From positions 684,580 to 748,579 of the forward strand of contig OZ220467.1 in NCBI GenBank assembly GCA_965116075.1: DNA of 64,000 bases. Direction: 5' to 3'. Shown here one piece after another: positions 7,405 to 64,000 of this stretch (position 1 is the first letter of the stretch; the number at the start of each line of letters is the position of its first letter). Under the pieces are notes generated by a model. The model ran no database searches and had not been told where the DNA came from. It saw only the letters and a list, made by a program, of their open reading frames with translations. The stretch is from Thermodesulfobacteriota bacterium. GTDB taxonomy: Bacteria; Desulfobacterota_D; UBA1144; Nemesobacterales; Nemesobacteraceae. The position numbers and the translations under genes were made by a program.

Positions 7405-7567
7405 GTGTTCCTCCTCCTTTGTTGTAGAAAGACGGCTTGGGACATGAATCCCTCGCCTTGAAACACATTATACAAGAAATGTTGCCATTGACGCAACACT
7501 AGTTGAATTTTTTCCCTTCTTTCAGCATACCCGCCCCCTCGGGAACAGGAAGGTCAAATCATCATGA

Positions 7568-18850: not shown

Positions 18851-19333
18851 CTATGACAACTCAAGCATCTTTTTCAGTCGAATACCACTTTGACTGAGTT
18901 GCCTGGCCTGAGGAGAGTTTTTTGGCATTTTCATGCTACCGCTGGCAATCCAGGTATATCGAATATCTTTATTGGTGCGGGCGGTCATCTTTTTGAGTTG
19001 TTCAGCATCTTTATTCAACCAGTCTTTTAGCCATTGTAATTTTTTGAGAACCGCTGAAACTTCCTTTGTCGTAGCCGGATGAACCTCTACCCAAACTGCC
19101 CATTGGCTCTTATGCTTTGGATGTTTATATCCTATACCATAGTCCCATCGGGGCGAATTAGCGTGGCGAGGCTCAAGTTTAAGAGCCAAGTCGAGATTTA
19201 TACTTCCTGTCAATCGTCGCGGGTTTGCGCATTTTATCAATTTCCCGTGCTTTTTACCTGATGCTTGCTTTTCACTTCGGTATGCGCAGTTCACCGGATG
19301 TGACGTAGACCTCACCGCATCTTTGAAATTCAT
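18851..19333 (-). CDS. 160-aa partner protein of the upstream ATPase (RloB/DUF4276-like?)
   Basis: Its start overlaps the ATPase stop by 4 nt (translational coupling). The product is basic, with no TM helix or signal peptide, and has no strong motif. Confidence 0.55.
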   Translation of the reverse strand: MNFKDAVRSTSHPVNCAYRSEKQASGKKHGKLIKCANPRRLTGSINLDLALKLEPRHANSPRWDYGIGYKHPKHKSQWAVWVEVHPATTKEVSAVLKKLQWLKDWLNKDAEQLKKMTARTNKDIRYTWIASGSMKMPKNSPQARQLSQSGIRLKKMLELS

Positions 19334-27872: not shown

Positions 27873-27902
27873 TTGACAGAAATCATTAAAGTGTGGTAAA
27901 CT
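27873..27902 (+). promoter_or_regulatory. candidate sigma70 promoter of the giant gene (TTGACA - 18 nt - TGgTAAACT extended -10)
   Basis: ttgaca at 27873-27878 and tg.taaact at 27894-27902. The predicted +1 falls at ~27909, the A of an ATG, which would give a leaderless transcript. Confidence 0.4.
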
Positions 27903-27908: not shown

Positions 27909-27983
27909 ATGACTCCTGTTACTCTACCTGCTGCTGCCCCCCCCCCCCCCTTAAAAATTCAGATGCGGGGCCGAAGCGCGTGA
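27909..27983 (+). promoter_or_regulatory. 24-codon uORF (MTPVTLPAAAPPPPLKIQMRGRSA*) containing the poly-C tract; its TGA overlaps the GTG start of the giant gene (GTGA)
   Basis: ATG 27909 is in frame 3 and the stop falls at 27981-27983. Adding one C to the tract would put this ATG in frame with the signal-peptide ORF. Confidence 0.35.
27937..27950 (+). repeat. homopolymeric C14 tract 30 nt upstream of the giant-gene start
   Basis: ctgctg-cccccccccccccc-ttaaaa. It lies exactly at the GC-content boundary. Confidence 0.9.
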
Positions 27984-28453
27984 GAGACCTGCGCGGGACG
28001 CTTCGCTTGGCGGCGCTGGCCGCCGTTCTCCTGTTCGCGCTGAGCGCGGGCCTTGCGCCCCAGGCTGCGCATGCCACGTGGGGGGTCTTGACGGCCACCC
28101 CGGGCGATGGGCAGGTTACGCTGACCTGGACTTGGACGCACTCAAGACCTAACTTCAGCCACTGGTTTTTCAGGTATGTAAGAGCTGGCCAACCTTATCC
28201 CGGGTATGACTGTTTGCCTAGATTTAATATCTGCTCCATTGACGACCCAAAGTACAGACTGACAGGGGCTCATCATCGCACCCAGACGATTACCGGACTC
28301 ACCAATGGGGTCGAGTACGTGTTTGAGGTACGCGCCCATGTTCCTAATACGGTTTTGGAGGTGAGGGCGACCCCGTCGCGCTATCCCATTGCCCCGAAGG
28401 GCGTACGCGACGCCGGGAACCAGCCAGGTCACCTTGTCCTGGGACGCTCATAA
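27980..28453 (+). CDS. giant secreted repeat protein, N-terminal segment (signal peptide plus first FN3-like domain), frame 2; separated from the main frame by a +/-1 frameshift
   Basis: MRDLRGTLRLAALAAVLLFALSAGLAPQAAHA-TWG... has the n-, h- and AHA-cleavage regions of a Sec signal peptide. It is followed by an FN3-like fold (TITGLTNGVEYVFEVRA). The frame ends at TAA 28451, while frame 3 opens at 28365. Confidence 0.7.
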   Translation: MRDLRGTLRLAALAAVLLFALSAGLAPQAAHATWGVLTATPGDGQVTLTWTWTHSRPNFSHWFFRYVRAGQPYPGYDCLPRFNICSIDDPKYRLTGAHHRTQTITGLTNGVEYVFEVRAHVPNTVLEVRATPSRYPIAPKGVRDAGNQPGHLVLGRS

Positions 28454-43400: not shown

Positions 43401-46400
43401 GCGACGCCGCTTACGCCGCCTGGGGCTCCGCAGAACCTGGCGACGAGTGACGGCGACGGTCAGGTGATATTGCGGTGGCGTAATCAGGGTGATAGTACGA
43501 TCACCGGCTGGGAGTACCGGCAGAAGCCGGATGGCGGTGAGTACGGTGAGTGGATGGCGATCGACGGTTCCGGTTCGGGGACGACGACCCACACGGTGAC
43601 GGGGCTTACGAACGGCACCCGGTACACGTTCGAGGTGCGCGCGGAGAACGGCGGTGGCAAGGGGGCGTCGTCGGAGGTGATGGCGACGCCGGTACGGGGT
43701 CCTGCCGAGGCGCCGACGGGTTTCACGGTGACGCCGGGGGACGGTCAGGTGACGTTGTCTTGGGACAGTTCGGATGATGATCGTATCAGCCGCTGGAGCT
43801 ACCGGCAGAAGGCGGGCGACGGCGAGTACGGCAGGTGGACCGCTATTCCGGGTGATGCGACGACGACGAGCCACACGGTGACGGGGCTTACGAACGGCAC
43901 GAAGTACACGTTCCAGGTTCGGGCGTGGCAGAAGGACAGTGTGGCGGGCAAGTCTACCGCCGGGATCACAGTGACGCCGACGCCGGCCCCAGCGACGGCG
44001 GTTTCGCTAAGTATCGCGGATGCGACGGTAGCGGAGGCTGCGGGTACGATGTCGTTCACGGTGACGGCGACTCCGGCGCCGAGTTCGCTGATAACGTTCC
44101 AGTACGCGGTGACGGCGGAGAGTGGGAACACGGCGACTGCGGGTACGGATTTCACCGGGGTGTCGACGCCGACTGAGGTGACGATTGCGGCTAACGCGAG
44201 TAGCGCGACGATTGCGGTTGCGGTGACGGACGATGTTCTGGTAGAGGGTGATGAGACGTTTACGGTGACGTTGTCAGCGCCGTCTGCCGGAGTGACGATT
44301 TCCGATGCTACGGCGACGGGTACGATCACCGATGACGACTTCTTGCCGGGCAAGCCTGCGGGATTTGAGGCGACGGGAGGCAACGCTCAGGTGGCCCTGT
44401 CGTGGGACGATCCGGAGGACGCGAGCATCACGCGTTACGAGTTGCAGCAGAAGGAGAGGAGCAACGCCTGGGGTTCGTGGACTGCGATATCGGATTCGGA
44501 CGCGGAGACGACGACCCATACGGTGACGGGACTGGATAACGGCAGTGAGTATCGCTTCCGCATCCGTGCGGTAAACCCGAGCGGCGCGGGCGCGCAGTCT
44601 TCGGTGGTGAAGGCGACGCCGCAGGCGAATCCCGCAAAGCCTGTGCTGACGGCGACGGCGGGCAACGCTCAGGTGACGTTGAGTTGGCAGTTGCAGCCGG
44701 GCATTGCGATCGCGACCTGGACGTATCAGTACAGCAGCGACGGCGGTTCTACGTGGAGCGCGTCGCAGACGGTGACGGGCGCGAGCGCGACGAGCACGGT
44801 GGTGACGGGGCTTACGAACGACACGGAGTACGCGTTCCGTATGTTCGCTGCGGTGGGTCCGGGCGCGCAGTCCGCGTGGTCGGACTTTGTGAAGGCGACG
44901 CCGAGGGCGCCGGCGCCTGCCGCCCCGGCGAATTTCAGCGCGAGTCCCGGCAACGCCCAGGTGAAGTTGACGTGGGATGATCCTGAGGACGCGAGCATCA
45001 GCGTCTGGCAGTTGCGCTACGGCAAGCAGGGTGAGGACTGGGGTTCATGGAAGAGGATGTCGGGATCGGACGCGAGCACGACCACTCACACGGTGACGGG
45101 TCTTGAGAACGGCAGCGCGTACCGTTTTCGGATTCGGGCGAAGAACAGCAGTGGCTTGGGCGCGCGGTCGCCTGCGGTGACGGCAACGCCCCGGGTGCTG
45201 GTGAAGCCTGTGGTGACGGCGCAAGCGGGCGACGGTAAGGTGACGTTAAGCTGGTCTGCGCAGCCGGGTTCCGGCGTGACGGCCTGGGTCTACCAGTCGA
45301 GTAGCGATGGTGGTTCTACGTGGAGCGCGTCGCAGACGGTGACGGGCGGCAGCGTGACGAGCGTGGTGGTGACGGGACTTACGAACGACACGGAGTACGC
45401 GTTCCGTATGTTCGCCCGCGCTGGCAGCGCGCAGTCTTCGTGGTCGGACCATGTGAAGGCTACGCCGAAAGCGGCATCGCTGAGCGTTGCGGACGTGACG
45501 GCTGCGGAGGATGGCGCGTTCACATTCACGGTGACGGCTGATCCTGCGCCGGCCTCGGAGATCAGTTTCAAGTACACGGTGACGGCGGAGACCGGCGATA
45601 CGGCGACTGCGGGTACGGACTTCACGGCGGTTACGACAGCGACGGAGAAGACGATTGCTGCGAACGCGACCAGCGTGTCGATAACGGTGACGGTGACGGA
45701 TGATGATATTGACGAGGACAATGAGACGTTTACGGTGACGTTGTCAGAGCCGTCCTCCGGGGTGACGCTCACCGACGCTACGGCGACGGGTACGATAACG
45801 GACAATGACACGGCGGGCGTGACGATCTCGCCGACCTCGCTGACGGTGGAGGAAGGTGATAGCGGCGAGTACACGGTGGCGCTGGACACGGAGCCGACGG
45901 CGGACGTGACGGTGACGGTGGGCGGAGAATCAGGCGAGGTGACGGTGGACCCGTCTTCGCTGACGTTCACGTCGTCGAACTACGGCACGGCGCAGACGGT
46001 GACGGTGAGCGCCGGGTCGGATGCGGACGCGACGGACGATACTGCGACGCTGACGCATGAGGCGTCCGGCAGCGACACGAACTACGGCTCGTCGCTTGAC
46101 ATAGACGAAGTCTCGGTGACGGTGACGGACACGACGCCGACGTTGCAGTTATTGACGGACCCTGCGGCGGTGACGGAGGGGACGGCGATCAGTCTTTCGG
46201 TGACGTCGGACCGGGCGCTGACGGGTAATCTGACGGTGAGCCTGACGCTTTCGGGCCGTGGTTCGAGCGGTTTCGATGCGGACGACATTCCGGGCGGGTT
46301 GGGTCCGCGTGACTTCACCGCATCGTTTGGCAACACCGCCGGCAGGACGGGCGTGGTGACGATCCCGACCAGCACGGACTCGACCACGGAGGGCGCGGAG

Positions 46401-49400
46401 ACATACCGGATCACGCTTAGCGATGCCGACGGCTATGCGGTTGGCGACGATGTGACGGCTGACGGCACGTTGAACGACGGCGCGGCGACGCCCTGCAAGG
46501 TGTCGGTGACGAACTACCGCGCGATTGACGACAGTGGTTTTCTGCCGGTTTACTCGATTTCGTTCGGTTTGCGGATACCGGCGAACTGTGGTCCGATCAC
46601 GGGGATGCAGCGTCAGATCAAGACCTTGAGTCAGGGCTGGGGCGATGTGGAGTGGGTGGACCTGGAGAATGCGGGTCTGCGTACGTTTGCTAACAGCGCC
46701 ACTGCCAGGACGCCTTCCGGAATCGAGCTGGTCTTCCTGAATTCCGGCAGCGGCAAGCATCAGGTTCGGGTGCGCGCGCAGAACGGCGCGCGAGTCGGTC
46801 CGGCATCCGACGAGGTGTCGGTGACGTTCGAAGTCCCGCCCACACCGAGCGGGCTGAGCGCGACCCCTGGCGCTGCCTCGGTGACGCTGACCTGGAATGC
46901 GCAGTCCGGGGAGCAGATCACGTCGTGGAACGTCCAGTACAAGCGGGGTTCCGAGTCGTACCGGAACCTGCACGTGGCGGATGCCGGGGACGGCAGCACG
47001 ACGACGGCTACGGTGACGGGTCTGTCGGCAGAGGAGTACACGTTCCGTTTGCAGGCTAGGAACGAGAACGGTCTGAGCGCGGCCTCGTCGACGGTGACGG
47101 CGACGCCGACAGCAGCGACCGTGGTTCCGCCCGCTCCGACGGGCGTGAGGGCGACGGGGGGTGACGGCGAGGTGACGCTGTCGTGGACCGACCCGCAGAA
47201 CGATACGATCACGAAGTGGCAGTACCGGCAGAAGACGGGTAGCGGCGCTTACGGTGAGTGGACGGACCTTGAGCACAGCCGGACACGTAGCGCGTTTCCG
47301 ACGCTGACGGGTACGGTTGGTGATCTGACGAACGGGAGTTCGTATACGTTCGAGCTTCGCGCGGTGAACGGTGTCGGCGCTGGCGCGGCTTCTTCTGAGG
47401 TTACGGTGACGCTGGGCGCGGATGCGGATGCGGTATCGCTGAGCGTTGCGGACCTGACGGCGGCGGAGGGCGGTACGTTCGCGTTCACGGTGACGGCGAC
47501 GCCTGCGCCGGCCTCGGAGATCAGCTTCAAGTACACGGTGACGGCGGAGACCGGCGATACGGCGACTGCCGATACGGATTTCACAGAGGTTGATACGGCG
47601 ACCGAGGTGACGATTGCGGCGAACGCGACCACGGCGACGATAACGGTGTCGGTGACGGATGACGATCTTGATGAGGACAATGAGACGTTTACGGTGACGT
47701 TGTCAGAGCAGACCTCCGGGGTGACGCTCTCTGACGCCACTGCGACAGGGACGATAACGGATGATGATAATTCCCCGGTATTGGAAGATATAGAGGATTT
47801 AACGATAAGGCTGGGGCAGTCGGTGGATATAACTGCGGTGGCGACGGATGCGGACGACGATGACATCGGCTATGTCTGGACGCGTAAGTCCGGGGAGACG
47901 TCCCCTGCGATACCTGGTAGCGCGGATCTGGAAGTGGCTCGGTTGATGTTCAAGTCTACCTCGGTGGGTACGTACACGATGACGGTGACCGCATCTGACG
48001 GCAATGGGAACAGCGATACGGAGGAAGTGGAGATCACGGTGGTACGGGCGCGCGTGGTCTCGGTGCCGGCGACGCTGTCGGTGGCGGAGGATGATGGCGA
48101 TGCGGTGGTGACGGTGACGACGGAGGGCGCGTTTGGTGAGAATGTGACGTTTAACGTGACGTACGGTGGTACGAGCGCGACGGGGCACAACGACCCTGCC
48201 AGCGGCGACTATGACAATGATGCGGTGACGGCGATAACGTTTGGAGCGGGCGACCTGACAAAAGACATTGAGGTGCCGATAACGGATGATAATCTTGAAG
48301 AGGCTGATGAGACGTTCACGGTGACGATTGCCCCTGCGACCGCCACGCTGCCTGATGGTTTCGCAATGGGAGATGCCACGACGACGGTGACGATAGAGGA
48401 CAATGATACGCAAGCGCCGTGTAAGGTGGAGGTGGTGGATGTATCAACGACGGCGGATGCCAGTCCGTTCCCCGGCGGTCAATCAATTTACTCAATATCG
48501 TTTAAGGTGAGGATACCTGCGGATTGCGGCGCTATAACCAATATGCAGAGGCGTATAAAGACGAACGGGCAGTGGGGTGAATGGACGGATAATGAGGTGT
48601 TGCGCAGTTTTGCTGACAGCGCTACGGCAAGGACGCCTGCGGAGATGGAGTTGATACTCGTAGCGGATGGTAGCGCGAGGGAGGTGCAGGTTCGGGCGTT
48701 AAACGGTAGTAAGACAGGTCCTGAGTCAGAAGCTGTTGGCGTCACGTTTACCGCGCCGGGCAAGCCGGGTGGTTTGAGCGCTACAGGCGGGGCTGGTTCC
48801 GCAGCGTTGAGTTGGGATGGGCAGACGGGAGAGCAGATCACGGCATGGGTGGTGGAGTACAAGCGTGGTTCAGAGAGTTATAAGAGTAAGGTGATAGTGG
48901 ATGCTGGAGATGGTAGCGCTACAGCGACGACTATCACGGGTTTAGCGTCTGAGGAATACACTTTTCGTATAAAGGCGCGTAATCCAAACGGAGACAGTCC
49001 TTATTCAGATGAGACGACAGCTACGCCAGAGGCGGTGACCGCTGCTCCTGCGGCGCCGACGGGAGTGACGGGCAGTCCGGGGGACGGGGAAGTGAGGTTG
49101 GAGTGGGCAGACCCAGAAGATGCGAACATAACGAAGTGGCAATATGAGCAGAAGGCCGGTAGCGGCGCTTATGATGGGGCTTGGACGGACATCACGGTAT
49201 CAAAGAGCGGATCTCTTTCCAGGTTAACGGGTACGGTCACGGGTTTGACAAATGGCGTCAGTTATACGTTTAAGGCGCGCGCGGTGAATAGCGCGCTAAA
49301 TAGCGCTGTCGCCGGCTCGGGCAACGGCGCGGAATCGGATGAGGTGACGGTAGTGCCGATAGCGGCGCCGACGGGATTAACGGTGACGCCTGCGGGCAGT

Positions 49401-52400
49401 GGCAAGTTGCGTTTGAGGTGGACGGCGCCGACGGATGCGTCCCGTACGGGATGGGAGGTTAGGCACAGGGCGTCTGGAGGTGAATGGGGTGAGTGGGCTG
49501 CCATAACGGGCGCGGGTACGACGAGTCATCTTCTTACGGGATTAACGACGGGGACTTACTACAGGGTGCAGGTTAGAGCGGTGAACGGTAATGTAAAGAG
49601 CGCGACGGCGTTTGGTACTGCGGAGGTGAGAGGGACCGTATCGTTGAGCGTTGCGGACGTGACGGCTGCGGAGGATGGCGCGTTCGCATTCACGGTGACG
49701 GCGACGCCTGCGCCGGCTTCGGATATAAGCTTTAAGTACACGGTGACGGCGGAGAGTGATGACACTGCGACTGCGGGTACGGACTTCACGGCGGTTGAGA
49801 CGGCGACCGAGGTGACGATTGCGGCGGGTGAGACCACGGCGACGATAACGGTTGTGGTGACGGATGATGACATTGATGAGTCGGATGAGACGTTCACGGT
49901 GACGTTGTCAGACCTTCCGGAATGGGTGGAGTTGGGTGATCCCACCGCGACAGGGACGATAACGGACAACGATGAGACGCCAGCGCCGTGTAAGGTGGAG
50001 GTGGTGGATGTATCAACGACGGCGGATGCCAGTCCGTTCCCCGGCGGTCAATCGATTTACTCAATATCATTTAAGGTGAGGATACCTGCGGATTGCGGCG
50101 CTATAACCAATATGCAGAGGCGTATAAAGACGAACGGGCAGTGGGGCGAATGGACGGATAATGAGGTGTTGCGCAGTTTTGGGGACAGCGCTACGGCAAG
50201 GACGCCTGCGGAGATGGAGTTGATACTCGTAGCGGATGGAAGCGCGAGGGAGGTGCAGGTTCGCGCGTTAAACGGTAGTAAGACAGGTCCTGAGTCAGAA
50301 GCTGTTGGCGTCACGTTTACCGCGCCGGGCAAGCCGGGTGGTTTGAGCGCTACAGGCGGGGCTGGTTCCGCAGCGTTGAGTTGGGATGGGCAGACGGGAG
50401 AGCAGATCACGGCATGGGTGGTGGAGTACAAGCGTGGGTCAGAGAGTTATAAGAGTAAGGTGATAGTGGATGCTGGAGATGGTAGCGCTACAGCGACGAC
50501 TATCACGGGTTTAGCGCCTGAGGAATACACTTTTCGTATAAAGGCGCGTAATCCAAACGGAGACAGTCCTTATTCAGATGAGACGACGGCTACGCCGGGC
50601 GCGGTGACCGCTGCTCCTGCGGCGCCGACGGGAGTGACGGGCAGTCCGGGGGACGGGGAAGTGAGGTTGGAGTGGGCAGACCCAGAAGATGCGAACATAA
50701 CGAAGTGGCAATATGAGCAGAAGGCCGGTAGCGGCGCTTATGATGGGGCTTGGACGGACATCACGGTATCAAAGAGCGGATCTCTTTCCAGGTTAACGGG
50801 TACGGTCACGGGTTTGACAAACGGCGTCAGTTATACGTTTAAGGCGCGCGCGGTAAATAGCGCGCTAAATAGCGCTGTCGCCGGCTCGGGCAACGGCGCG
50901 GAATCGGATGAGGTGACGGTAGTGCCGATAGCTGCGCCGACGGGATTAACGGTGACGCCTGCGGGCAGTGGCAAGTTGCGTTTGAGGTGGACGGCGCCGA
51001 CGGATGCGTCCCGTACGGGATGGGAGGTTAGGCACAGGGCGTCTGGAGGTGAATGGGGTGAGTGGGCTGCCATAACGGGCGCGGGTACGACGAGTCATCT
51101 TCTTACGGGATTAACGACGGGGACTTACTACAGGGTGCAGGTTAGAGCGGTGAACGGTAATGTAAAGAGCGCGACGGCGTTTGGGACTGCGGAGGTGAGA
51201 GGGACCGTATCGTTGAGCGTTGCGGACGTGGAGGCTGCGGAGGATGGCGCGTTCACGTTCACGGTGACGGCGACGCCGGCGCCGGCTTCGGATATAAGCT
51301 TTAAGTACACGGTGACGGCGGAGAGTGATGATACTGCGACTGCGGGTACGGACTTCACGGCGGTTGAGACGGCGACCGAGGTGACGATTGCGGCGGGAGA
51401 GACCACGGCGACGATAACGGTTGTGGTGACGGATGATGACATTGATGAGTCGGATGAGACGTTCACGGTGACGTTGTCAGACCTTCCGGAATGGGTGGAG
51501 TTGGGTGATCCCACCGCGACAGGGACGATAACGGACAATGATGAGACTCCTGCGCCGTGTAAGGTGGAGGTGGTGGATGTATCAACGACGGCGGATGCCA
51601 GTCCGTTCCCCGGCGGTCAATCGATTTACTCAATATCGTTTAGGGTGAGGATACCTGCGACTTGCGGCGCTATAACCAATATGCAGAGGCGTATAAAGAC
51701 GAACGGGCAGTGGGGCGAGTGGACGGATAATGAGGTGTTGCGCAGTTTTGGGGACAGCGCTACGGCAAGGACGCCTGCGGAGATGGAGTTGATACTCGTA
51801 GCGGATGGTAGCGCGAGGGAGGTGCAGGTTCGGGCGTTAAACGGTAGTAAGACAGGTCCTGAGTCAGAAGCTGTTGGCGTCACGTTTACCGCGCCGGGCA
51901 AGCCGGGTGGTTTGAGCGCTACAGGCGGGGCTGGTTCCGCAGCGTTGAGTTGGGACGGGCAGACGGGAGAGCAGATCACGGCATGGGTGGTGGAGTACAA
52001 GCGTGGTTCAGAGAGTTATAAGAGTAAGGTGATAGTGGATGCTGGAGATGGTAGCACTACAGAGGCGACTATCACGGGTTTAGCGCCTGAGGAATACACT
52101 TTTCGCATAAAGGCGCGTAATCCAAACGGAGACAGTCCTTATTCAGATGAGACGACGGCTACGCCAGAAGCGGTGACCGCTGCTCCTGCGGCGCCGACGG
52201 GAGTAATGGGCAGTCCGGGGGACGGGGAAGTGAGGTTGGAGTGGGCAGACCCAGAAGATGCGAACATAACGAAGTGGCAATATGAGCAGAAGGCCGGTAG
52301 CGGCGCTTATGATGAGGCTTGGACGGACATCACGGTATCAAAGAGCGGATCTCTTTCCAGGTTAACGGGTACGGTCACGGGTTTGACAAACGGCGTCAGT

Positions 52401-55400
52401 TATACGTTTAAGGCGCGCGCGGTGAATAGCGCGCTAAATAGCGCTGTCGCCGGCTCGGGCAACGGCGCGGAATCGGATGAGGTGACGGTAGTGCCGATAG
52501 CGGCGCCGACGGGATTAACGGTGACGCCTGCGGGCAGTGGCAAGTTGCGTTTGAGGTGGACGGCGCCGACGGATGCGTCCCGTACGGGATGGGAGGTTAG
52601 GCACAGGGCGTCTGGAGGTGAATGGGGTGAGTGGGCTGCCATAACGGGCGCGGGTACGACGAGTCATCTTCTTACGGGATTAACGACGGGGACTTACTAC
52701 AGGGTGCAGGTTAGAGCGGTGAGTTCTAATGGAAGAAGCGCGACGGCGTTTGGTACTGCGGAGGTGAGAGGGACCGTATCGTTGAGCGTTGCGGACGTGG
52801 AGGCTGCGGAGGACGGCGCGTTCGCATTCACGGTGACGGCGACGCCTGCGCCGGCTTCGGAGATAAGCTTTAAGTACACGGTGACGGCGGAGAGTGATGA
52901 CACTGCGACTGCGGGTACGGACTTCACGGCGGTTGAGACGGCGACCGAGGTTACGATTGCGGCGGGTGAGACCACGGAGACGATAACGGTTGTGGTGGCG
53001 GATGATGACATTGATGAGTCGGATGAGACGTTCACGGTGACGTTGTCAGACCTTCCCGAATGGGTGGAGTTGGGTGATCCCACCGCGACAGGGACGATAA
53101 CGGACAATGACAATTCACCTGTGGTGGCGGCGATAGAGGATAAGACGATTAGTTTGGGGCAGCCGGTGGATATAACGGCGTCTGCGACGGATGCGGACAG
53201 TGGCGATACGATCAGCTACGCATGGACGCGTAAGTCCGGGGAGACGTCCCCTGCGATACCGGATGGCACGGCGCTGGACGCTGCGCGGTTGATGTTCACG
53301 CCGCTTGCGAAGGGTAAGTACACGATGACGGTGACTGCAAGTGACGGCAACGGCAACACGGGCGTTGAGGAAGTGACGGTCACGGTAAGCGATAAGGGTA
53401 CGGTGTCGGTGTCGCCGACGGCGTCGGTGACGGAGGGTACGGACGCGGCGGCGGTGAGGGTAACGGCTTCGTCGGCGTTGGGTAAGTCTGTGACGTTTAA
53501 CGTGACGTATGGTGGTACGAGCGCGACGGGGCACAACGACCCTGCCAGCGGCGACTATGACAACGATGCGGTGACGGCGGTAACGTTTGGAGCGGGTGAT
53601 CTGACAAAAGACATTGCAGTGCCGATAACGGATGATGATCTGGACGAAGATGACGAGACGTTCACGGTAACAATCGCCCTGGCGGGGGGCAGTTCGCTGC
53701 CTGCGGGTTTTGAGTTAGGGAATGTCCGAACGACGGTGACGATAACGGATGATGATAGTTCTCCGGAGTTGGAGGAGATAGATGATAGTACGGTGAAGCG
53801 AGGGGGTGAAGTGGACATCACTGCGGTGGCGACGGATGCGGACGGTGATACGGTGACGTACGCCTGGACGCGCAAGGCGGGTGAGACGTCACCGGCGCTT
53901 CCGAACGGCGTGGCGTTGAATGCGGCTCGTCTGACGTTCACTACGACCGAGGTGGGTAAGTACACGATGACGGTGACGGCATCTGACGGCAATGGGAACA
54001 GCGATAGTGAAGAGGTGGTGATAACGGTCAGTAACCCTCCCGCAAAGCCTAAGGGGTTTGAAGTCAGTGCGGGCAACGCGCGTGTGGTGTTGTCGTGGAG
54101 AGACCCTGAAGACGATAGCATAACCGGTTGGGAGATGCGGCAACGGAAGGGTAGCGCGTCTTGGGGGCAGTGGGCAGGCATTGCGGATTCCGACGCTGAT
54201 ACTACCACTCACGCGGTGACGGGGCTTACGAACGGTAGCGAGTACCGTTTTCAGATACGAGCGGTGAACGACGCTGGTAAGAGTAAACCGTCGCCGGCGC
54301 TGGCAGCGACGCCGAAGGAGAGTTTGCTGGTCAAGCCGGTGTTGACGGCGACTGGTGGCGACAGATCAGTGACATTGAGTTGGACGCACCCGGACACGGG
54401 GATTACCAGTTGGGTTTACCAGTACAAAAGCGGTACGCAGGAGTGGAGTACGGACCGACAGGAGACTATAACAGGAGGGAGCGGGACGAGCAAAGTGGTG
54501 ACGGGGCTTACGAACGGAACGGAGTACATGTTCCGCGTATTCGTTCGCGCAGGGCTGACGTCGCAATCCGGATGGTCGTCGGAGGCGACGGCGACGCCGG
54601 GCGCGCTTACGATTTCCGTGGAGGCTATGACGGTGGAGGAGGGGGATTCCGGGGAGACGCCGATGGATTTTCAGGTGAGGTTAAGCGGTTCTCCGAGCGA
54701 TAGGGTGGAGATAGAAGTTACGGCGTGGGCGAAGGGGGTTACGGGAGCGGCGGCAAAGGGAGGTAAAGGGGCTGGTCAGGATTTCATAGGGTTTAGGGCT
54801 CGGAGGATAGTTTTTGCCGCAGGCGCGACGGGCGCTGATTTAAGTAAGACGGTGCGAGTGAAGGTATTGGGAGATGAGGTGGATGAGGAGGATGAGAAGT
54901 TTATCCTGCGACTCAACTATATACGTACTAATTTGACAGGCGTGGGTTTTGCGGGAGGTGAGTCCAAGTTGGAAGTGACAGGCACGATAACGGATGATGA
55001 TGAGGCTACGGCTAGCGGGCATGAGATTTCGGTAGAGGATGTGACGATAGCCGAGGGTGACGTGGGAGAGAAGGAGATGAGTTTCACGGTGACGCTAAGC
55101 GGGACTCCGAGTCACGAGGTGGGGATAGAAGTTACGGCGTGGGCGAAGGGAGTTACGGGAGAGGCGGCTAAGGGAGGCAGGGGGCCTGGGCGTGATTTCA
55201 TAGGTTTTAGGGCTCGGAAGATAGCTTTTGCCGCAGGCGCGACAGGCGCTGGTCTAAGTAAGACAGTGCGAGTGAAGGTACTGGGAGATGAGGTGGATGA
55301 GGAAGATGAGGAGTTTATCCTGCTACTCAACAACCTAAGGACGGAAGATACCCGCGTGGTTTTTGCGGGAGGTGAGTCCAAGTTGGAAGTGACAGGCACG

Positions 55401-58400
55401 ATAACGGATGATGACGAGGCTACGGCTAGCGGGCATGAGATTTCAGTGGGGGATGCGACGGTAACCGAGGGTGACTCTGGCGCGCGTACGAGTATGAATT
55501 TCACCGTGACGTTAAGTGGTACGCCGAGTCATGAGGTTAAGGTTCGCGCTGTTGCCAAGGACGGTACGGCAGAGGAAGGCGCTGGGAAGGACTTCAGGCA
55601 GTACTCTGGAAACAAGGAGGTGGTTTTTGCCGCGGGCGCGACGGGTAGTGGATTAAGTAAGACGGTGGTGGTGCAGGTACTGGGGGATGATATAGATGAG
55701 GGAGAACAAGAGGAGTTTACTCTGCAGTTGAGTAGCATAAGGACGGAAGATGCGCGTGTGGTATTTGCCGGGAACAAAGGGAACATAGAAGCCACTGGTA
55801 CGATAACGGATGATGATACGGCGGGCGTGACGTTGTCTGAGTCTGCGCTGACGGTGGAAGAAGGTGGTAGCGGGACCTACGAGGTGAAGCTTGACACTAA
55901 ACCTTCAAGTGAAGTGACGGTGACGGTGAGCGGTGAGTCAGGTGAAGTGACGGTTATGGGTTCGCCGCTGACGTTCACGCCGGCCAACTACAACGTGGCG
56001 CAGACGGTGACGGTGAATGCGGGGACGGATGCGGACGCGACGGATGACACTGCGACGCTGACGCATGCGGCATCCAGTACCGATACGAACTACGGTTCTT
56101 CTCTGGAAGTGGAAGACCTTTCGGTGACGGTGACGGATACGACGCCGACGTTGCAGCTATTGACGGACCCTGCGGCGGTGACGGAGGGGACAAGCATAAG
56201 TCTCTCGGTGTCTTCGGACCGCGCGTTAACGGGCGATCTGACGGTGAGTCTGACGCTTGCGGACCGTGGACCAAGCGGTTTTGATGCGGACGACATTCAG
56301 AGTACGCTGGGTCCGCGGGACTTCACCGCTTCGTTCGGCGACACCGCCGGCACGACAGGTACGGTGAGTATTCCGACTATCTCAGATGCCACTTCAGAGG
56401 GCGCGGAGACATACCGGATAACGCTTAACGACGGTACGGGGTACGTAGTGGGCGCCAAGACTACGGCGGATGGGGCGGTGAATGACCCGCTGGCAAAGCC
56501 GGCGGGACTTACGGCCAGTCCCGGCAATACGCGGGTGGAGTTGTCGTGGGACGACCCTGAGAACGGTAGCATAACGGTTTGGCAGGCGCAGCATAGCAAG
56601 GTAGGCGAGAGTTGGGGTTCCTGGACGGATATTAGCGGTTCTGACGCGAGCACTACCACTCACGCGGTGACTGGTCTGGATAACGGTAGCGAGTACCGTT
56701 TCAGGATACGAGCGAAGAGCAGTAGTGAGGTGGGACCGCAGTCGGCTGTGGTGAGAGCGACGCCGCGTGTAGTGGTGAAGCCGGTGGTGACGGCGACTGC
56801 GGGCGCCGGGTCGGTGACGTTGAGTTGGCCTGCGCAGCCGGGTTCCGGCGTGACGGCGTGGGGCTACCAGTCGAGTAGCGATGGTGGTACGAGCTGGACG
56901 TCGACGAAGATCGTGAACGACGGCAGCGCGACGAGCGTGGTGGTGAAGGGGCTTACCAACGGTACGGAGTACACGTTCCGGGTGTTTGGTCGCGCTGGCT
57001 CTGCGCAGTCGTCCTGGTCAGACCACGTGAAGGCGACCCCGTTGGCGAAGCCTGGAAGGCCGGCGGGTTTTTCGGTAAGCGGTGGTGACGCGCAGGTGGA
57101 GTTATCGTGGAACGACCCTGACAACGACACTATAACGGTTTGGCAGGCGCGTTACGGCAAGGTGGGCGAAGACTGGGGCGATTGGACAGATATAGAAAGT
57201 TCTGACGCCGATACTACGAGTCACACGGTGAGTGGGCTTGATAACGGCAGCGAGTACCGTTTCAAGGTACGGGCGGTGAACAGTAGCGGTAACGGTCGTG
57301 AGTCGGCTACGCTTAAAGCGACGCCGGAGGAGAATAGGGTAGCCAAGCCGGTCTTGAGAGCTACGGCAGGTGACGGGTCAGTGACATTGAGGTGGAAGAG
57401 ACAGGCCGGAGTTACGAGTTGGGTATATCAGTACAAAAGCGGTACGCAGGAGTGGAGCGCGCGACCACAGAAGACTGTAACAGGAGGAAACACGACGAGC
57501 GTGGTGGTGACGGGGCTTACGAATGATACGGAATACACGTTTCGGATGTTTGCCCGCGCTGACTCTGCGCAGTCTGCGTGGTCGGACTTCGCGAAGGCGA
57601 CGCCGAAGGCGCCGGCGCCCGCTATGCCGACGGGGCTTGTGGCAAGCGCGGGCAATGCGCAGGTGGAGTTGTCATGGTCCGACCCTGAGAACGACAGCAT
57701 AACGGTTTGGCAGGCGCGTTACGGCAAGGTAGGGGGATCATGGGGCGCTTGGACGGACATCTCCGGTTCTGACGCGGATACCACAAGCCACACCGTATCA
57801 GGGCTTACCAACGGCAGCGAGTATCGTTTCCGAATCCGGGCGAAGAACAGCAGTGGGCCAAGCGACCCGTCGGCTGTGGTGAGAGCGACGCCGGAGCAGC
57901 CGGAGACCGCGGGCGTGACGGTGTCAGTGTCGTCGCTGACGGTGAAGGAAGGAGGCAGCAGGACCTACAAGGTGAAGCTTGACACCGCGCCGGGGGCGAA
58001 TGTGACGATAACGGTGGGTGGCGCATCGGGTGATGTGACGGTGGACCCGGCTTCCCTTACGTTCACGGCGGGCAACTACAACACGGCGCAGACGGTGACG
58101 GTGAGCGCGGCTGCGGACGCGGACACGACGGATGATGCGGTGACGCTGACGCATACGTCGGCCAGCACCGATACGAACTACGGCGCCTCGCTTGACATAG
58201 ACGACGTCTCGGTGACGGTGACGGATACGACGCCGACGTTACAGCTATTGACGGCTCCTGCGGAAGTGGCGGAGGGGTCAAGCATAAGTCTTTTGGTGAC
58301 ATCGGACAAGGCCCTGCGTGGTACGTTAAAAGTGAAGTTGACGTTATCTGACCGGGACTCAAGTGGATTTACAGCGGCGGATATTGTTGGTACGCTCGGG

Positions 58401-61400
58401 CCGCGAGAGTTCACGGTGAACTTCGGCAATACCCGTAGAACGACAGGTACGGTGAGCATTCCGACCAGCGCGGACGCGACTGCGGAGGGAGAGGAGACAT
58501 ACCGGATAACGCTTAACGCCGGTACGGGCTATGCGGTGGGTGACGATGCGACGACGGAGGGCGCGGTGAAAGACCCGCTGACAAAGCCGACGGGCTTTAG
58601 CGTGAGTCCTGGCAATGCGCAGGTGGAGTTGTCGTGGAACGACCCGGATAACGACACCATAACGGGTTGGCAGGTACAGTACGGCAAGGCAGGGAAGTCA
58701 TGGGGTTCCTGGACGGATATTAGCGGTTCTGACGCGAGCACCACTACTCACACCGTGAGTGGGCTTACGAACGGTAGCGAGTATCGGTTCAGGATACGAG
58801 CGGTGAACAGTCTGGGCGATGGACCGAAGTCGTCTATAAAAACCACGACGCCGCGTGTAGTGGTGAAGCCGGTGGTGACGGCGACTGCGGGCGCCGGGTC
58901 GGTGACGTTGAGTTGGCCTGCGCAGCCGGGTTCCGGCGTGACGGCGTGGGGCTACCAGTCGAGTAGCGATGGTGGCACGAGCTGGACGTCGACGAAGATC
59001 GTGAACGACGGCAGCGCGACGAGCGTGGTGGTGAAGGGGCTTACGAACGGTACGGAGTACACGTTCCGGGTGTTTGGTCGCGCTGGCTCTGCGCAGTCAT
59101 CCTGGTCAGACCACGTGAAGGCGACCCCGTTGGCGAAGCCTGGAAGGCCGGCGGGTTTTTCGGTAAGCGGTGGTGACGCGCAGGTGGAGTTATCGTGGAA
59201 CGACCCTGACAACGACACTATAACGGTTTGGCAGGCGCGTTACGGCAAGGTGGGCGAAGACTGGGGCGATTGGACGGATATAGAAAGTTCTGACGCCGAT
59301 ACTACGAGTCACACGGTGAGTGGGCTTGATAACGGCAGCGAGTACCGTTTCAAGGTACGGGCGGTGAACAGTAGCGGTAACGGTCGTGAGTCGGCTACGC
59401 TTAAAGCGACGCCGGAGGAGAATAGGGTAGCCAAGCCGGTCTTGAGAGCTACGGCGGGTGACGGGTCAGTCACATTGAGGTGGAAGAGACAGGCCGGAGT
59501 TACGAGTTGGGTATATCAGTACAAAAGCGGTACGCAGGAGTGGAGCGCGCGACCACAGAAGACTGTAACAGGAGGGAGCGCGACGAGCGTGGTGGTAACG
59601 GGGCTTACGAATGATACGGAATACACGTTTCGAATGTTTGCCCGCGCTGGCTCTGCGCAGTCTGCGTGGTCGGACTTCGTGAAGGTGACGCCGAAGGCGC
59701 CGGCGCCCGCTGCGCCGACGGGACTTACGGCAAGCGCGGGCAATGCGCAGGTGGAGTTGTCATGGTCCGACCCTGAGAACGACAGCATAACGGTTTGGCA
59801 GGCGCGTTACGGCAAGGTGGGAAGATCATGGGGCGCTTGGACCGACATCTCCGGTTCTGACGCCGATACCACAAGCCACACCGTATCAGGGCTTACCAAC
59901 GGCAGCGAGTATCGTTTCCAAATCCGCGCGAGAAACAGCAGTGGACCAAGCGACCCGTCGGCTGTGGTGAGAGCGACGCCGGAGCAGCCGGAGACCGCGG
60001 GCGTGACGGTGTCAGTGTCGTCGCTGACGGTGAGGGAAGGAGGCAGCAGGAACTACAAGGTGAAGCTTGACACCGCGCCGGGGGCGAATGTGACGATAAC
60101 GATAGGTGGCGCATCAGGCACGGATGTGACGGTGGACCCGGCTTCCCTTACGTTCACGCCGGCCAACTACAACACGGCGCAGACGGTGACGGTGAGCGCG
60201 GCCGCGGATGAGGACACGACGGATGATGCGGCGACGCTGACGCACGCCGCATCTGGCGCTGATGGCTACGATGCCTCACTAGTAATAAAAAGCGTCTCGG
60301 TGACGGTGACGGATACGACGCCGACGTTACAGCTATTGACGGCTCCTGCGGAAGTGGCGGAGGGGTCAAGCATAATCCTGACGGTGACATCGGACAAGGC
60401 CCTGCGTGGTACGTTAAAAGTGAAGTTGACGTTATCTGACCGGGACTCAAGTGGATTTACAGCGGCGGATATTGTTGGTACGCTCGGGCCGCGAGAGTTC
60501 ACGGTGAACTTCGGCAATACCCGTAGAACGACAGGTACGGTGAGCATTCCGACCAGCGCGGACGCCACTGCGGAGGGAGAGGAGACATACCGGATAACGC
60601 TTAACGACGGTACGGGCTATGCGGTGGGTGACGATGCGACGACGGAGGGCGCGGTGAAAGACCCGCTGACAAAGCCGACGGGCTTTAGCGCCACTAAGGG
60701 TGACAGGCAGGTGGAGTTGTCATGGAACGACCCGGATAACGACACTATAACGGGTTGGCAGGCGCAGTACGGCAAGGTAGGGCAGTCATGGGGCGCTTGG
60801 ACGGATATTAGCGGTTCTGACGCGAGCACCACTACTCACACGGTGAGTGGGCTTACGAACGGTAGCGAGTATCGGTTCAGGATACGGGCGGTGAGCAGTC
60901 TGGGCGATGGACCGAAGTCGTCTATAAAAACCGCGACGCCGAAGGCGGTATCGCTAAGCGTGGCTAACGTGACGGCGGATGAGGATGGGACGTTCGCGTT
61001 CACGGTGACAGCCAGGCCGGCGCCATCATCAGAGGTGAGTTTTAAGTATACGGTGACGGCAGAGAGTGGAGACACGGCGACTGCGGGTACGGACTTCACG
61101 GCGGTTGAGACAGCGGCAGCGAAGACGATTGCGGCAAACGCGACCACAGCGACGATAACGGTGTCGGTGACCGATGATGGTCTTGATGAGAAAAACGAGA
61201 CGTTCACGGTGACGCTATCGGAGCCATCCGAAGGCGTGATGATAAGCGATGCCACGGCGAAGGGCAGGATAAGGGATAATGACAGTTCACCGGAGTTGGC
61301 GGAGATAACAAACAAGACGGTCATGCTGGGAGATGATGTGGATATTACAGCTTCTGCGACGGATGCGGACGGCGATGCCATAAGTTACGCCTGGACGCGT

Positions 61401-64000
61401 AAGTCCGGAGAGACATCGCCTGCCATACCGGGTGGCGCCAGCGTGAGCCAGGCGCGGTTAACGTTTACGCCACCGGATATAGGTACGTACACGATGACGG
61501 TGACGGCGTCTGACGGCAACGGCAACAGCGATACGGAGAGCGTGGTGATCACGGTCACCAACGTTGCGCCGGCCCAGCCGACGGGTTTATCGGCCAAGGC
61601 GAGACATGGACAGGTGGAGTTGTCATGGACAGACCCGGACAACGACAGTATAACGGTTTGGCAGGCGCAGTACGGCAAGGTGGGCGCCGCCTGGGGTGGT
61701 TGGACGGACATCACCGGTTCCGACGCTGATACGACGAGGCACACGGTGACGGGACTTGACAACGGTAGCGAGTACCGCTTCCGAATCCGGGCGAAGAACA
61801 GCAGTGGAACGAGCGACCCGTCAGTTGTGGTGAGAGCGACGCCGACCGCCTCAGGCGTGACGATCTCACCGACCGCGCTTAGGGTGGATGAAGGGAGTAG
61901 CAATACCTACACGGTGGCGCTGGACACGGAGCCTTCAAGTAACGTGACGATAACGGTTGGCGGCGCATCGGGTGAAGTGACGGTGGACCCGGCTTCCCTG
62001 ACGTTCACGCCGGCGAACTACAACACGGCGCAGACGATAACGGTGAACGCCGCAGCCGACGGAGATGCGGACGACGATACGGCGACGCTGACGCACGCCG
62101 CATCCGGTAGCGATACGAACTACGGCGCCTCACTCAACATAGACGATGTCTCGGTGACGGTGACGGACACGACGCCAACGCTGCAGCTGCTAACCGACCC
62201 GGCGGCGGTGACCGAGGGTACGGATATAAGCCTCACGGTGACCTCCGACCGAGAGCTGACGGGTGATCTGACGGTGAGTCTGACCCTGGCGGCTCGTGGT
62301 TCAAGCGCCTTCGACGCCGATGACATTACCGGCGCGCTCGGTCCACGGAACTTCACCGCCAGCTTCGGCAACACAGCCAGCTCTACCGCCACGGTGACGA
62401 TACCGACCAGCCCGGATTCAGATGTGGAGGACGACGAGACCTACCGGATAACGCTTGGCGACGGGACCGGTTATGCGGTCGGCGACGATGTGACCGCCGA
62501 CGGTACGCTAAACGACAGTACCGCGAAGACGGTTTCAGTGCCAACGGCGTTAACGGTGGCGGAGAATGCGGGCACTGCGCAAGTAACGATAACGGCATCT
62601 AAAGCTTTTGGTGAAGCGGTGACGTTTAACATCACTTACGGCGGCACGGCGACAGGGGCGTCAGACCCGTCAAACGGAGACTACGACAATGATGCGCTCG
62701 CCTCTGTGAGTTTTAACGCGACTGAAACGACTAAGGACATAGCGATACCGATAACGGATGATGACGAAGCTGAGTCCGACGAGACTATAACGGTAACGAT
62801 AGCGTCAGCAAGCGCGCTACCCGATGGGTTTACGCTGGGTAACTCAACCACCACGGTGACAATCACGGACAATGATACGCCGGAGCCCTTGGGTACGATG
62901 AGCGTGACGGTGGGCGATGGGCAAGTGACGTTAACATGGGAAGACCCCTCAGATGACAGAATAGCCAAGTGGCAATACCAACAGAAGCCCGCAGGGGGTG
63001 GAGAGGGTAGTTCCGGGAATAGTCTCCGCCTTCAATCTCAGAATGCAGGGGAAGAGAGTTACGGGCCCTGGATAGATATTCCGAATTCAGGGCCAACCAC
63101 GACCAGTCATACGGTGACGGGATTGACCAATGGCACGCAATACAGCTTCAGGGTAAGAGCCCTAGATTCTTCCGGAAACGTGCTTAAGACCTATCAGGAG
63201 GCAAGCGCCACGCCAAGAGTAAAGACCACCGGCGTCTCACTGAGCATTGCGGATGTGTCAGCGGATGAAGGCGGGACGTTCGCATTTACGGTGACGGCTA
63301 CGCAAGCGCCATCGTCACAAATAAGTTTCAAATACACGGTAACAGCGGAAGGAGAAGATACTGCGGTGGCAGGAGAGGACTTCACTGCGGTTAGTACGGC
63401 TACGGAGGGGAGCATACTGGCTGACGCCACTACGACGACAATAACGGTGTCGGTGACGGATGACAGCGTTGATGAGGATGATGAGACGTTCACGGTGACG
63501 CTGTCAGAACCGTCCGAAGGGGTAAGCATTTCAGACGGAGTGGCCAAAGGGACGATAATAGATAATGACATAGCGGCTGCGGTGACGGTTGCGCCGACTG
63601 AATTGGTAGTGGAAGAAGGAGCGAGCGGCGCGTATACGGTGGCGCTGGATGCTAAGCCCACGGGTGAGGTGACGATAACGGTAAGCGGGATGGCGGGAGA
63701 TGTGACGGTGGATAACTCATCGCTTAAGTTCACCGTGGACAGTTGGGATACTGAGCAGACGGTGACGGTAAACGCGTCGGAAGATGATGACGCGGTTGCG
63801 GATGCCGCGGTAATGCTGACGCATAGCGCGTCAGGCGGTGGTTACGATGCGGTAGAGATAGACTCGGTGGAGATAACGGTAACGGAAGATGACACCGCAG
63901 GGGTGAAGGTGGAGCCTACGTCGTTGACAGTGAAGGAAGGGTCAAGCGGTACATACGCGGTAGCGCTTGAGACCGAGCCTACGGATGAGGTGACGATAAC
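28365..64000 (+). CDS. giant secreted multi-domain adhesin-like protein, main reading frame (frame 3), >=11,878 codons, 3' end beyond the window
   Basis: No stop codon in frame 3 from 28365 to 64000; the frame was checked at 29280, 35640, 50211 and 63900. The translation is a continuous array of FN3 (..QVTLSWDDP.N..IT.WEYQQK....YG.WT.I.GSDA.TTSHTVTGLTNGT.Y.F.VRAVN..G), Calx-beta (..DDDLDEDDETFTVTLSEPS.GV.L.DATATGTITDND), cadherin-like (D.DGDTVTY.WTRK.GETTP) and other beta-sandwich modules. It was not listed in the ORF track because it has no stop in the window. Confidence 0.85.
29283..30250 (+). repeat. three tandem ~105-aa 'TLTH' modules (Calx-beta-like variant: LTVEEG.SG.YTV.L...P.A.VTV.V.G..G.V.V.P.SLTFT..NW...QTVTV.A..D.D.....TLTH.ASG..Y)
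   Basis: Seen directly in the frame-3 translation. The same module recurs at roughly 32440, 38160, 39530, 45810, 55810, 57900, 59990, 61860 and 63590. Confidence 0.6.
30947..32440 (+). repeat. run of five consecutive FN3 domains
   Basis: Each ~95 aa with the W..D/NP.N..IT.WE.Q start and the Y.F.VRAVN..G...S..V.ATP end. Confidence 0.7.
33041..33375 (+). other. canonical Calx-beta domain (example; more than 20 in the gene)
   Basis: PSLSVADVTAAEDGTFTFTVTLDPAAPADVTFKYAVTAESGDTATADTDFTEV...TFTVTVADDKLDEDDETFTVTLSEPSANAQLGDAAATGTITDND. Confidence 0.75.
33376..33680 (+). other. cadherin-like / He_PIG-type Ig domain (example; about 9 copies)
   Basis: ASPVLADIDNLTLRLGRTVDITATATDADAGDTITYAWTRKAGETTPPLP....ARLTFTPTEAGVYTMTVTASDGDSNGN. 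The same DxDGDTVTY.WTRK.GET motif recurs at about 34060, 34700, 36280, 41925, 47770, 53110, 53760 and 61270. Confidence 0.65.
34967..37205 (+). repeat. dispersed duplicate of a ~650-bp unit (FN3-variant plus Big_2-like Ig) at 34967-35625 and 36543-37205, ~97% identical
   Basis: VLTGVTSTSAAVVNLAWTHSGTAPGDFIGDPGGA...SITSSDTATATINPPSLTFTAQNYNMAQDVTVTGVKAGSATIGHAFRLTGA occurs twice. The off-frame ORFs 35240-35701 and 36827-37294 in the track are near-identical. Confidence 0.8.
38840..41915 (+). repeat. duplicated pair of Calx-beta domains (38840-39525 and 41225-41915, ~85-90% aa identity)
   Basis: ALSIADVTAAEDGTFTFTVTA...ELDEVDETVTLKLSNATNASIATATATGTITDDD matches VSLSVADVTAAEGGTFTFTVTA...ELDEVDETVVLKLSNESNATIPTATATASGTITDDD. 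Confidence 0.7.
42565..43990 (+). repeat. run of five to six consecutive FN3 domains
   Basis: Repeated ..GQVTLSWTDP.N..IT.W.YR.K....YGEW....GS...TTSHTVTGLTNGT.Y.FQVRA. Confidence 0.7.
48415..53121 (+). repeat. three near-identical (>98%) tandem copies of a 1,569-bp unit (523 aa: two-Cys FN3-like, FN3, FN3, FN3, Calx-beta)
   Basis: The unit boundaries gcgccgtgtaaggtggaggtggtggatgtatcaacg recur at 48415, 49984 and 51553. The artefactual minus-strand ORFs 48488/50057/51626, 49262/50831/52400 and 49559/51128/52697 are spaced exactly 1569 apart and are almost identical. An older diverged copy lies at ~46490-48414. Confidence 0.9.
54600..55818 (+). repeat. three tandem Calx-beta domains
   Basis: The block ISVE(D/A)(M/V)T(V/I)(E/A)EGD.G......FTVTLSG.PS..V.......DG.........DF........F.AGATG..LSKTV.V.VLGD..DEE.E.F.L.L..........F.......TGTITDDD occurs three times. 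Confidence 0.7.
56488..60950 (+). repeat. tandem repeat of a ~2,088-bp unit (696 aa: FN3a, FN3b, FN3a, FN3b, FN3a, TLTH module, Calx-like module), 2 copies plus a partial third, 95-100% identical
   Basis: Unit starts (PLAKPAGLTASPGN.../PLTKPTGFSVSPGN.../PLTKPTGFSATKGD...) lie at 56488, 58573 and 60661. The artefactual minus ORFs 56864/58952, 57428/59516, 57805/59893 and 58529/60617 are spaced 2088 apart. Confidence 0.85.

Follow-up and report, generated by a model that had tools for sequence, protein, structure and literature searches.

The 2,088-bp array and its duplication

We analyzed a window of 64,000 bp from a Thermodesulfobacteriota bacterium (GenBank assembly GCA_965116075.1, contig OZ220467.1, positions 684,580 to 748,579 of the forward strand); coordinates below count from the first letter of this window. 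Its right-hand part is occupied by one giant gene, whose stop-free frame encodes a string of about 113 beta-sandwich beads, about 57 of them FN3 and about 56 of them Calx-beta-like modules. Inside this frame lies a tandem array of 2,088-bp units, in which two subtypes of FN3 domain (types a and b) are combined with two further modules, X and Y. The features of the gene and the array that concern us first are the following.

28365-63998, plus strand: stop-free frame of at least 11,878 codons, running off the 3' end of the window, with the array inside and in frame
55815-56765, plus strand: older partial copy X'-Y'-a' (X' 55818-56138, Y' 56142-56483, FN3a' 56496-56762)
56758-56765, plus strand: 8-nt microhomology CGACGCCG, codons T/A-T-P, at the 3' end of an FN3a domain; duplication breakpoint
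56766-58853, plus strand: young copy 1, 2,088 bp, 696 codons
Domains of young copy 1: FN3b 56778-57038, FN3a 57057-57323, FN3b 57345-57602, FN3a 57624-57890, X 57906-58223, Y 58230-58571, FN3a 58584-58850
58854-60941, plus strand: young copy 2, 2,088 bp, 95.2% identical to young copy 1
Domains of young copy 2: FN3b 58866-59126, FN3a 59145-59411, FN3b 59433-59690, FN3a 59712-59978, X 59994-60311, Y 60318-60659, FN3a 60672-60938

When the sharing of 20-mers was counted per offset across the whole window, the dominant self-offset peaks were 1,569 bp and 2,088 bp, the latter being the second strongest, with 1,263 20-mers in common. Identity at offset 2,088, measured per 60 nt, was 65 to 85% over 55801-56760 and 92 to 100% over 56761-58860, except for a short stretch that fits an offset of 2,091, and it fell to the random level (about 25 to 30%) on both sides of the array. 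The periodicity is therefore far beyond chance, and chance similarity was rejected as its source. BLASTN aligned 55815-58853 with 57903-60941 at the same offset (89.5% identity over 3,060 columns), and a repeat search gave spacings of 561, 567, and 960 bp between type-a FN3 copies, followed by the same three spacings again, and of 2,088 and 2,088 bp between the copies of X and Y. Tandem Repeats Finder, run with a longest period of 500, did not report the array, and k-mer offsets, BLASTN, and the repeat search were used instead. In sum, the 2,088-bp array is genuine and in frame, 2,088 bp being 696 codons.

A first-pass annotation of the sequence had proposed such an array of 696-codon units, and the 2,088-bp offset signal is indeed present in the self-alignment of the gene. 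The unit starts it gave (56488, 58573, and 60661) lie 2,085 and 2,088 bp apart and have to be corrected, since the units repeat at exactly 2,088 bp, with FN3a domains at 56496, 58584, and 60672. Likewise, the repeat that it placed at 56488-60950 exists, but the array begins earlier, at 55815, with the older X'-Y' pair (55815-56495). Translation and alignment of the copies gave the order X'-Y'-a', then b-a-b-a-X-Y-a twice, and then the next Calx-beta domain. The repeat unit thus has seven domains, X and Y plus five FN3 domains (read as X-Y-a-b-a-b-a); the alternation of the FN3 subtypes is as strict in each unit as had been claimed, and there are two non-FN3 modules. The older partial copy is about 75 to 80% identical at the nucleotide level to 57903-58853. 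The array is young, as first described, with respect to a single duplication that gave the two copies 56766-58853 and 58854-60941, but its third, upstream part is old.

The two young copies are arranged head to tail at an offset of exactly 2,088 bp. Of 2,091 aligned columns, 100 differ between them (95.2% identity), and the alignment contains two 3-nt indels that compensate each other. Their breakpoints share the octamer CGACGCCG, which is also found at 58846-58853 and 60934-60941 and which ends all three period-final type-a domains. It is exactly at this octamer that the identity between the copies switches from about 55% to 100%. Upstream of it, the sequences before 58846 and 60934 agree and the sequence before 56758 differs; downstream of it, the sequences from 56766 and 58854 onward are identical, and unrelated sequence follows after 60941. 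Shifted back by two periods (60942 minus 2 × 2,088), the end of the array falls on the very position where identity jumps (56766), as predicted by one duplication of 56766-58853, and a history of gene conversion alone is therefore unlikely. In sum, the young part of the array arose by a single recent in-frame tandem duplication, in which 56766-58853 was copied to 58854-60941.

Between the young copies, the proportions of synonymous (pS) and nonsynonymous (pN) differences over 56766-58031 were 0.063 and 0.016 (pN/pS, 0.26), and none of the four differences in the first 600 bp changes an amino acid. In the comparison of the old Y'-a' with Y-a, pS was 0.40 and pN was 0.195. The pN/pS of about 0.26 indicates a translated and constrained sequence and speaks more strongly than any other finding against an assembly artefact or a pseudogene that died long ago.

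The differences between the young copies are distributed very unevenly: 57966-58365 has 43 and 58566-58765 has 21, compared to 4 in the first 600 bp. Stretches of 99 to 100% identity alternate with patches of about 90%. The longest exact runs common to the copies are 179 and 183 bp. The two 88-residue antisense open reading frames (ORFs) at 56864 and 58952, given in the first-pass annotation as 100% identical, agree at 87 of 88 positions. At the end of module X, 58154-58204 differs from 60245-60292 by 25 differences in about 50 nt and a 3-nt indel. This hyper-divergent patch may be a short conversion tract or a product of local diversification. Only its first 12 to 14 nt match another paralogue, near 62092, and a donor search for the divergent patches among the paralogues found nothing beyond this one 12-mer match at 62092.

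This mosaic, with its patch of 25 differences in 50 nt, would suit a different history, in which an old array of about 2.5 copies was kept alike by recent gene conversion and no recent duplication took place. The 12-mer that the start of the divergent patch shares with the paralogue at 62092 and the clearly old age of the upstream X'-Y'-a' copy (judging from its pS) point in the same direction. However, the onset of near-identity at 56766 would then be in phase with the array end at 60941/60942, and both would fall on the octamer, by coincidence only, and we consider this history unlikely. Conversion that followed the single duplication could explain the patchiness.

Domain subtypes and recurrent blocks

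Types a and b are both recognized by the Pfam fn3 profile (PF00041), with 54.9 and 32.2 bits, respectively, at a cut-off of 25. In two pieces of the gene product, of 1,666 and 1,667 residues, Pfam found 8 and 7 fn3 stretches; an iterated profile built from the gene itself found 57 FN3 domains across the gene. When the 52 full-length domains were clustered, type a (12 domains) and type b (7 domains) formed separate groups, with a mean identity of 64% within type a, 70% within type b, and 34% between the two. The consensus motifs by which the first-pass annotation had told the subtypes apart are borne out by this clustering. The hidden Markov model comparison of FN3a and FN3b that it had suggested (done with hhalign) gave a probability of 98.7% and an E value of 3.8e-16, i.e., the subtypes are homologous. 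Judged by their sequences, types a and b represent two diverged subtypes of one fold; the possibility that the distinction is mere noise was rejected.

Modules X and Y are less easily assigned. The only Pfam match of X was fn3_6, whose cut-off of 26.4 bits it missed with 25.5 bits, and Y had no credible match in Pfam. Neither reached the sequence-profile cut-off of 27 bits for Pfam Calx-beta (PF03160), and a sequence search of the PDB with the X-Y pair returned nothing at E values up to 1. Neighboring modules (around 54597-55808, 60939-61274, and 62517-62876) coincide with Pfam Calx-beta stretches. An AlphaFold model of X-Y has a predicted local distance difference test (pLDDT) score of 87.7 and contains two all-beta domains. 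When it was compared with the PDB by Foldseek, the tandem Calx-beta pair of NCX1 came out on top (E values of 3.7e-10 and 2.7e-09), and it was this structural route alone that resolved the fold. Furthermore, in-gene profiles seeded with X or with Y converge on one set of about 55 domains and, upon iteration, recover the regions of the best Calx-beta stretches of Pfam with E values of 1e-25 to 1e-43. The predicted fold and the convergence of the profiles identify X and Y as divergent relatives of Calx-beta, not as canonical members, and X-Y is accordingly modeled as a tandem pair of Calx-beta-like sandwiches.

Related blocks occur elsewhere in the gene:

38160-38825, plus strand: distant X-Y pair, 71 to 76% identical to the X-Y pairs of the array
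44352-46475, plus strand: older paralogous block, made of a b a b (44352-45464), one Calx-beta (45465-45800), and X-Y (45810-46475)
54045-54596, plus strand: older isolated a-b pair, colinear with 57088-57612 (72%)
61575-62513, plus strand: downstream older a-X-Y block, 73 to 74% identical to 57615-58552 and 59703-60640

The older a/b alternation that had been noted in two places was thus recovered by the clustering, at 44352-45464 and at 54045-54596. Homology runs across the a/b boundary inside the unit itself, where BLASTN aligned 56530-57263 with 57091-57830 (74%), as well as between the unit and the older blocks: 44352-45473 matches 56496-57611 colinearly as a-b-a-b (67.5% over 1,142 columns), 44940-45467, which is the second a-b pair of that block, matches 56514-57041 (77.8%), and 54076-54604 matches 57088-57612 (72%). 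In the domain order of the whole gene, each of the seven type-b domains comes right after a type-a domain, and 5 of the 12 type-a domains have no type b after them. The X-Y pair recurs at 38160, 45810, 55818, 57906, 59994, and 61848. In the older block at 44352-46475, it is colinear with X-Y of the array (72 to 80%), and its presence at the distant position 38160 marks X-Y as a recurrent two-domain block. Among homologues from other genomes, whose domains were classified in the same terms, two have the order a b X Y a (P0011 and P0042) and two have a X Y (P0002 and P0009), which means that the blocks are older than the giant gene. The proposal of an a+b super-repeat as the evolutionary building block is therefore supported by sequence homology across the a/b boundaries, with the refinement that X-Y is a second block and with the limit that the latest event copied seven domains and not an a+b pair.

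Two further tandem repeats were seen upstream of the array. A second young array at 48400-53100 has a period of 1,569 bp and about three copies at 96 to 100% identity; its unit consists of four FN3 domains of other subtypes and one Calx-beta, and an older partial version is found at 46551-47759. Directly upstream of the 2,088-bp array, three tandem Calx-beta domains (54597-55808) repeat with a period of 414 bp and about 85% identity; Tandem Repeats Finder gives 2.1 copies over 54669-55537, and the third domain comes from the in-gene profiles.

The giant gene and its relatives

The 5' end of the giant gene is set apart from the long frame:

27980-28453, plus strand: 5' ORF of the giant gene, opening with GTG and encoding a Sec-type signal peptide (MRDLRGTLRLAALAAVLLFALSAGLAPQAAHA) as well as the first FN3 domain (fn3 E value of 5e-4)

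The signal peptide was judged by inspection and has a basic n-region, a hydrophobic core, and an AHA cleavage motif. A +1 frame break near 28400 (28365-28453) separates the ORF with the signal peptide and the first FN3 domain from the frame of 11,878 codons; either an indel introduced by sequencing or a mutation that inactivated the gene very recently would account for it. Upstream of the GTG at 27980, a promoter-like, sigma-70-like match is seen at 27873-27902. Between the two lies a tract of 14 C residues (27937-27950); no other homopolymer in the window reaches 8 nt. By slipped-strand mispairing, the tract could switch the giant gene in a phase-variable manner, or it could simply be a site prone to errors. 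Long ORFs of up to 1,067 residues (e.g., 34527-37730) lie antisense to the giant gene on the minus strand at 29076-48413. They were rejected as genes, being by-products of a GC-rich coding frame with a high GC content at third codon positions (GC3); those in the array repeat with the array.

The base composition shifts abruptly at about 27,900, from a GC content of 0.36 to 0.49 to one of 0.64 to 0.67. The flanking genes have a GC content of about 0.43, and the GC3 of seven of them is 0.40 to 0.48. The giant gene has a GC content of 0.57 to 0.71, and its GC3 falls along the gene, from 0.84 to 0.92 (28365-43000) to 0.63 to 0.70 (46000-64000). This change in composition points to a gene that was acquired horizontally and that may be a mosaic. 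The flanking PolA is 66 to 69% identical to PolA of four chromosomes of 1.6 to 2.1 Mb that are metagenome-assembled genomes (MAGs) of Thermodesulfobacteriota (L001, L002, L021, and L023), and in none of the four was a giant or GC-rich gene found within 10 kb of polA. Taken together, the foreign composition and the lack of a counterpart beside polA in the four related MAGs make the giant gene look horizontally acquired.

The closest relatives of modules a, b, X, and Y are 46 to 61% identical, and several of them are spread over different contigs of a single long-read assembly in ENA (ERZ24894574), which hints at the sharing of modules within one community. The GC content differs between the two of its four loci (L034, L035, L036, and L037) that were measured, being 0.53 to 0.67 in L034 and 0.44 to 0.60 in L035. 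In L034 and L037, an array of FN3 and X-Y domains is followed by an Autotransporter domain (PF03797), which is weak in L037. Adjacent called ORFs overlap or run consecutively in both, and these may be single genes broken by frame or indel errors. These type Va autotransporter relatives resemble the giant gene in the domain orders a X Y and a b X Y a, and L034 also in its high GC content (0.63 to 0.67 across its FN3 genes, with a GC3 of 0.73 to 0.82). They differ in length, with about 1,400 to 2,600 residues when adjacent called ORFs are summed, compared to at least 11,900 in the giant gene, and in that their PF03797 barrel is visible, whereas the 3' end of the giant gene lies past the window. 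An N-terminal Sec signal peptide, as expected of a type Va autotransporter, was found in the giant gene (by inspection). By analogy with these closest relatives, export is probably mediated by Sec and a C-terminal autotransporter barrel, and the protein is probably an autotransporter-type adhesin.

A scan of JGI metagenomes with the unit yielded only two remote loci (33 to 35% identity). Six database homologues are named, and they include two Synechococcus sp. SB06xx bins, Aphanocapsa feldmannii 277cV, and Gammaproteobacteria bacterium AqS3. The first three, i.e., half of the named homologues, we take to be MAGs of sponge symbionts, and AqS3 is possibly another one. FN3 and Calx-beta domains are eukaryotic-like domains that are reported to be enriched in sponge symbionts (PMC11706023). 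The proteins counted there have the same two domain classes as the giant gene; that literature gives domain counts per genome and does not describe the giant gene or its arrays (PMC11706023).

Giant repetitive adhesins, in which beta-sandwich or helical-bundle modules are strung in tandem, are known from other bacteria and include SiiE, the LapA-type RTX adhesins, the ice-binding adhesin of Marinomonas, and Ebh. Embp of Staphylococcus epidermidis is described as a 1-MDa protein with 10 F and 40 FG repeats (PMC7587433). Giant adhesins of the Embp type and the giant gene are alike in their megadalton size, in having about 100 small repeated domains, in near-identical tandem units derived from in-gene duplication, and in a presumed role in adhesion or as a spacer. 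Unlike giant adhesins with one repeated domain, the giant gene mixes FN3 and Calx-beta-like domains in multi-domain units. RTX adhesins are secreted by the type 1 system, carry RTX repeats and a T1SS signal at the C-terminus, and lack an N-terminal Sec signal peptide; the presence of such a peptide here argues against the RTX or type 1-secreted class (LapA and SiiE), with the C-terminus lying beyond the window.

Proposed growth of the probable surface fiber

In our reading, which we hold to be likely as a whole, the region belongs to the extracellular stalk of a single giant surface protein that is exported by Sec and that grew by one 2,088-bp in-frame duplication. The protein, of which at least 11,900 residues are visible, would be built wholly of beta-sandwich modules of about 90 to 115 residues each. 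The earlier rounds of growth would have used a-b and X-Y pairs as blocks and in this way built the unit and the related blocks at 38160, 44352-46475, 54045, and 61575. In the ancestor, the order was ...X'-Y'-a'-(b-a-b-a-X-Y-a)-Calx..., of which the 2,088 bp in parentheses were duplicated once, in frame and in tandem. The location of the breakpoints at a shared octamer in the ends of type-a FN3 domains suggests that replication slipped, or that an unequal exchange took place, between two type-a domains separated by 2,088 bp, at the shared CGACGCCG. Such a duplication would be tolerated because the breakpoints fall in an inter-domain linker and the product gains seven intact domains. FN3 and Ig rods measure about 4 nm per domain, and with this value, each unit would add about 25 to 30 nm of rod. 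Since the duplication, the copies have diverged by about 5%, mostly at synonymous sites, with patchy homogenization or short conversion tracts. The protein may serve as a long adhesive or spacer fiber whose length is tuned by the copy number of the array.

Several points weigh against this account. The copy number in the organism is taken from the assembled sequence alone. The very patchy divergence is not what simple drift after duplication would give, and gene conversion or a consensus of a mixed population has to be added. With the +1 frame break near 28400, the gene could perhaps be no longer expressed. Furthermore, the C-terminus lies outside the window, and anchoring and the mode of secretion are presumed by analogy; adhesion is suggested by the domain types only.

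The frame break also opens the way to a view of the gene as a decaying pseudogene, acquired horizontally and inactivated by this break, with the arrays as neutral relics. The +1 shift between the signal-peptide ORF (27980-28453) and the giant frame, the foreign composition, and the insertion sequence (IS) elements nearby would all fit. In that case, however, 35.6 kb without a stop and the purifying selection between the young copies would require that the inactivation is very recent, or else that the break is a sequencing error. We think decay quite unlikely; it would in any case be compatible with the duplication itself. That the repeat was expanded or mis-joined during assembly, so that the true gene has another copy number, is highly unlikely, since the 100 differences have a strong synonymous bias (pN/pS, 0.26) and the junction is clean and in frame with no stop in 11,878 codons, even though assemblers struggle with 2-kb repeats of more than 95% identity, one frame break is already present in the gene, and the related genes in ERZ24894574 are called as consecutive or overlapping ORFs, perhaps owing to indel errors.

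The single in-frame duplication, to which we return, is a clean record of how a megadalton fiber grows: whole blocks of several domains are duplicated in frame where a short microhomology lies in an inter-domain linker, and smaller a-b and X-Y blocks, common to proteins in other genomes, were reused earlier. In-gene amplification of domain blocks is the normal growth route of giant repetitive adhesins, and the array is thus genuine and not surprising. It reveals no new mechanism and answers no open question; it is useful for the annotation and the assembly quality control of giant repetitive genes and for the module boundaries that structural work needs. More unusual is the gene as a whole, with its size, its foreign base composition in a genome of 43% GC, and a likely or possible symbiont context.

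One may go further and imagine that the two young arrays (1,569 and 2,088 bp) belong to an actively lengthening, horizontally acquired FN3/Calx-beta fiber of more than 1.2 MDa in a relative of Thermodesulfobacteriota with small genomes (1.6 to 2.1 Mb), that the a-b/X-Y blocks are shared among co-resident bacteria and reflect the binding of a periodic host-matrix ligand, and that the copy number varies in the population to tune the reach of the fiber. We regard this as speculative and its chances as slim. If it were true, the a-b/X-Y blocks would be a prokaryotic counterpart of the titin super-repeats. The A-band of titin, a eukaryotic muscle protein, has super-repeats with 7- and 11-domain patterns of Ig and FN3 domains. 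The giant gene resembles it in having two beta-sandwich types in a fixed multi-domain order and in tandem segmental duplication, and one of the titin super-repeats also has seven domains. But the titin pattern matches the periodicity of the thick filament, whereas the giant gene has no known periodic ligand and only two young copies, and no common origin is implied.

Rfam and tRNA scans of the whole window found nothing. Outside the giant gene, two IS630-like copies lie on the minus strand, 2,181 bp apart and with a GC content of about 0.53, at 6268-7499 and 8449-9117 (the extent of the second is approximate); the first consists of a DDE_3 transposase ORF and a helix-turn-helix ORF. An ORF at 3565-4122 resembles an rve integrase, with a weak match below the Pfam cut-off. 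Mobile elements are active in the host genome. Finally, an AAA_15/AAA_21 (AbiEii-like) ATPase ORF at 19330-20517 on the minus strand is followed, with a 4-nt overlap, by an unannotated ORF of 160 residues (18851-19333), and this ORF pair (18851-20517) may be a small defense or toxin-antitoxin pair.

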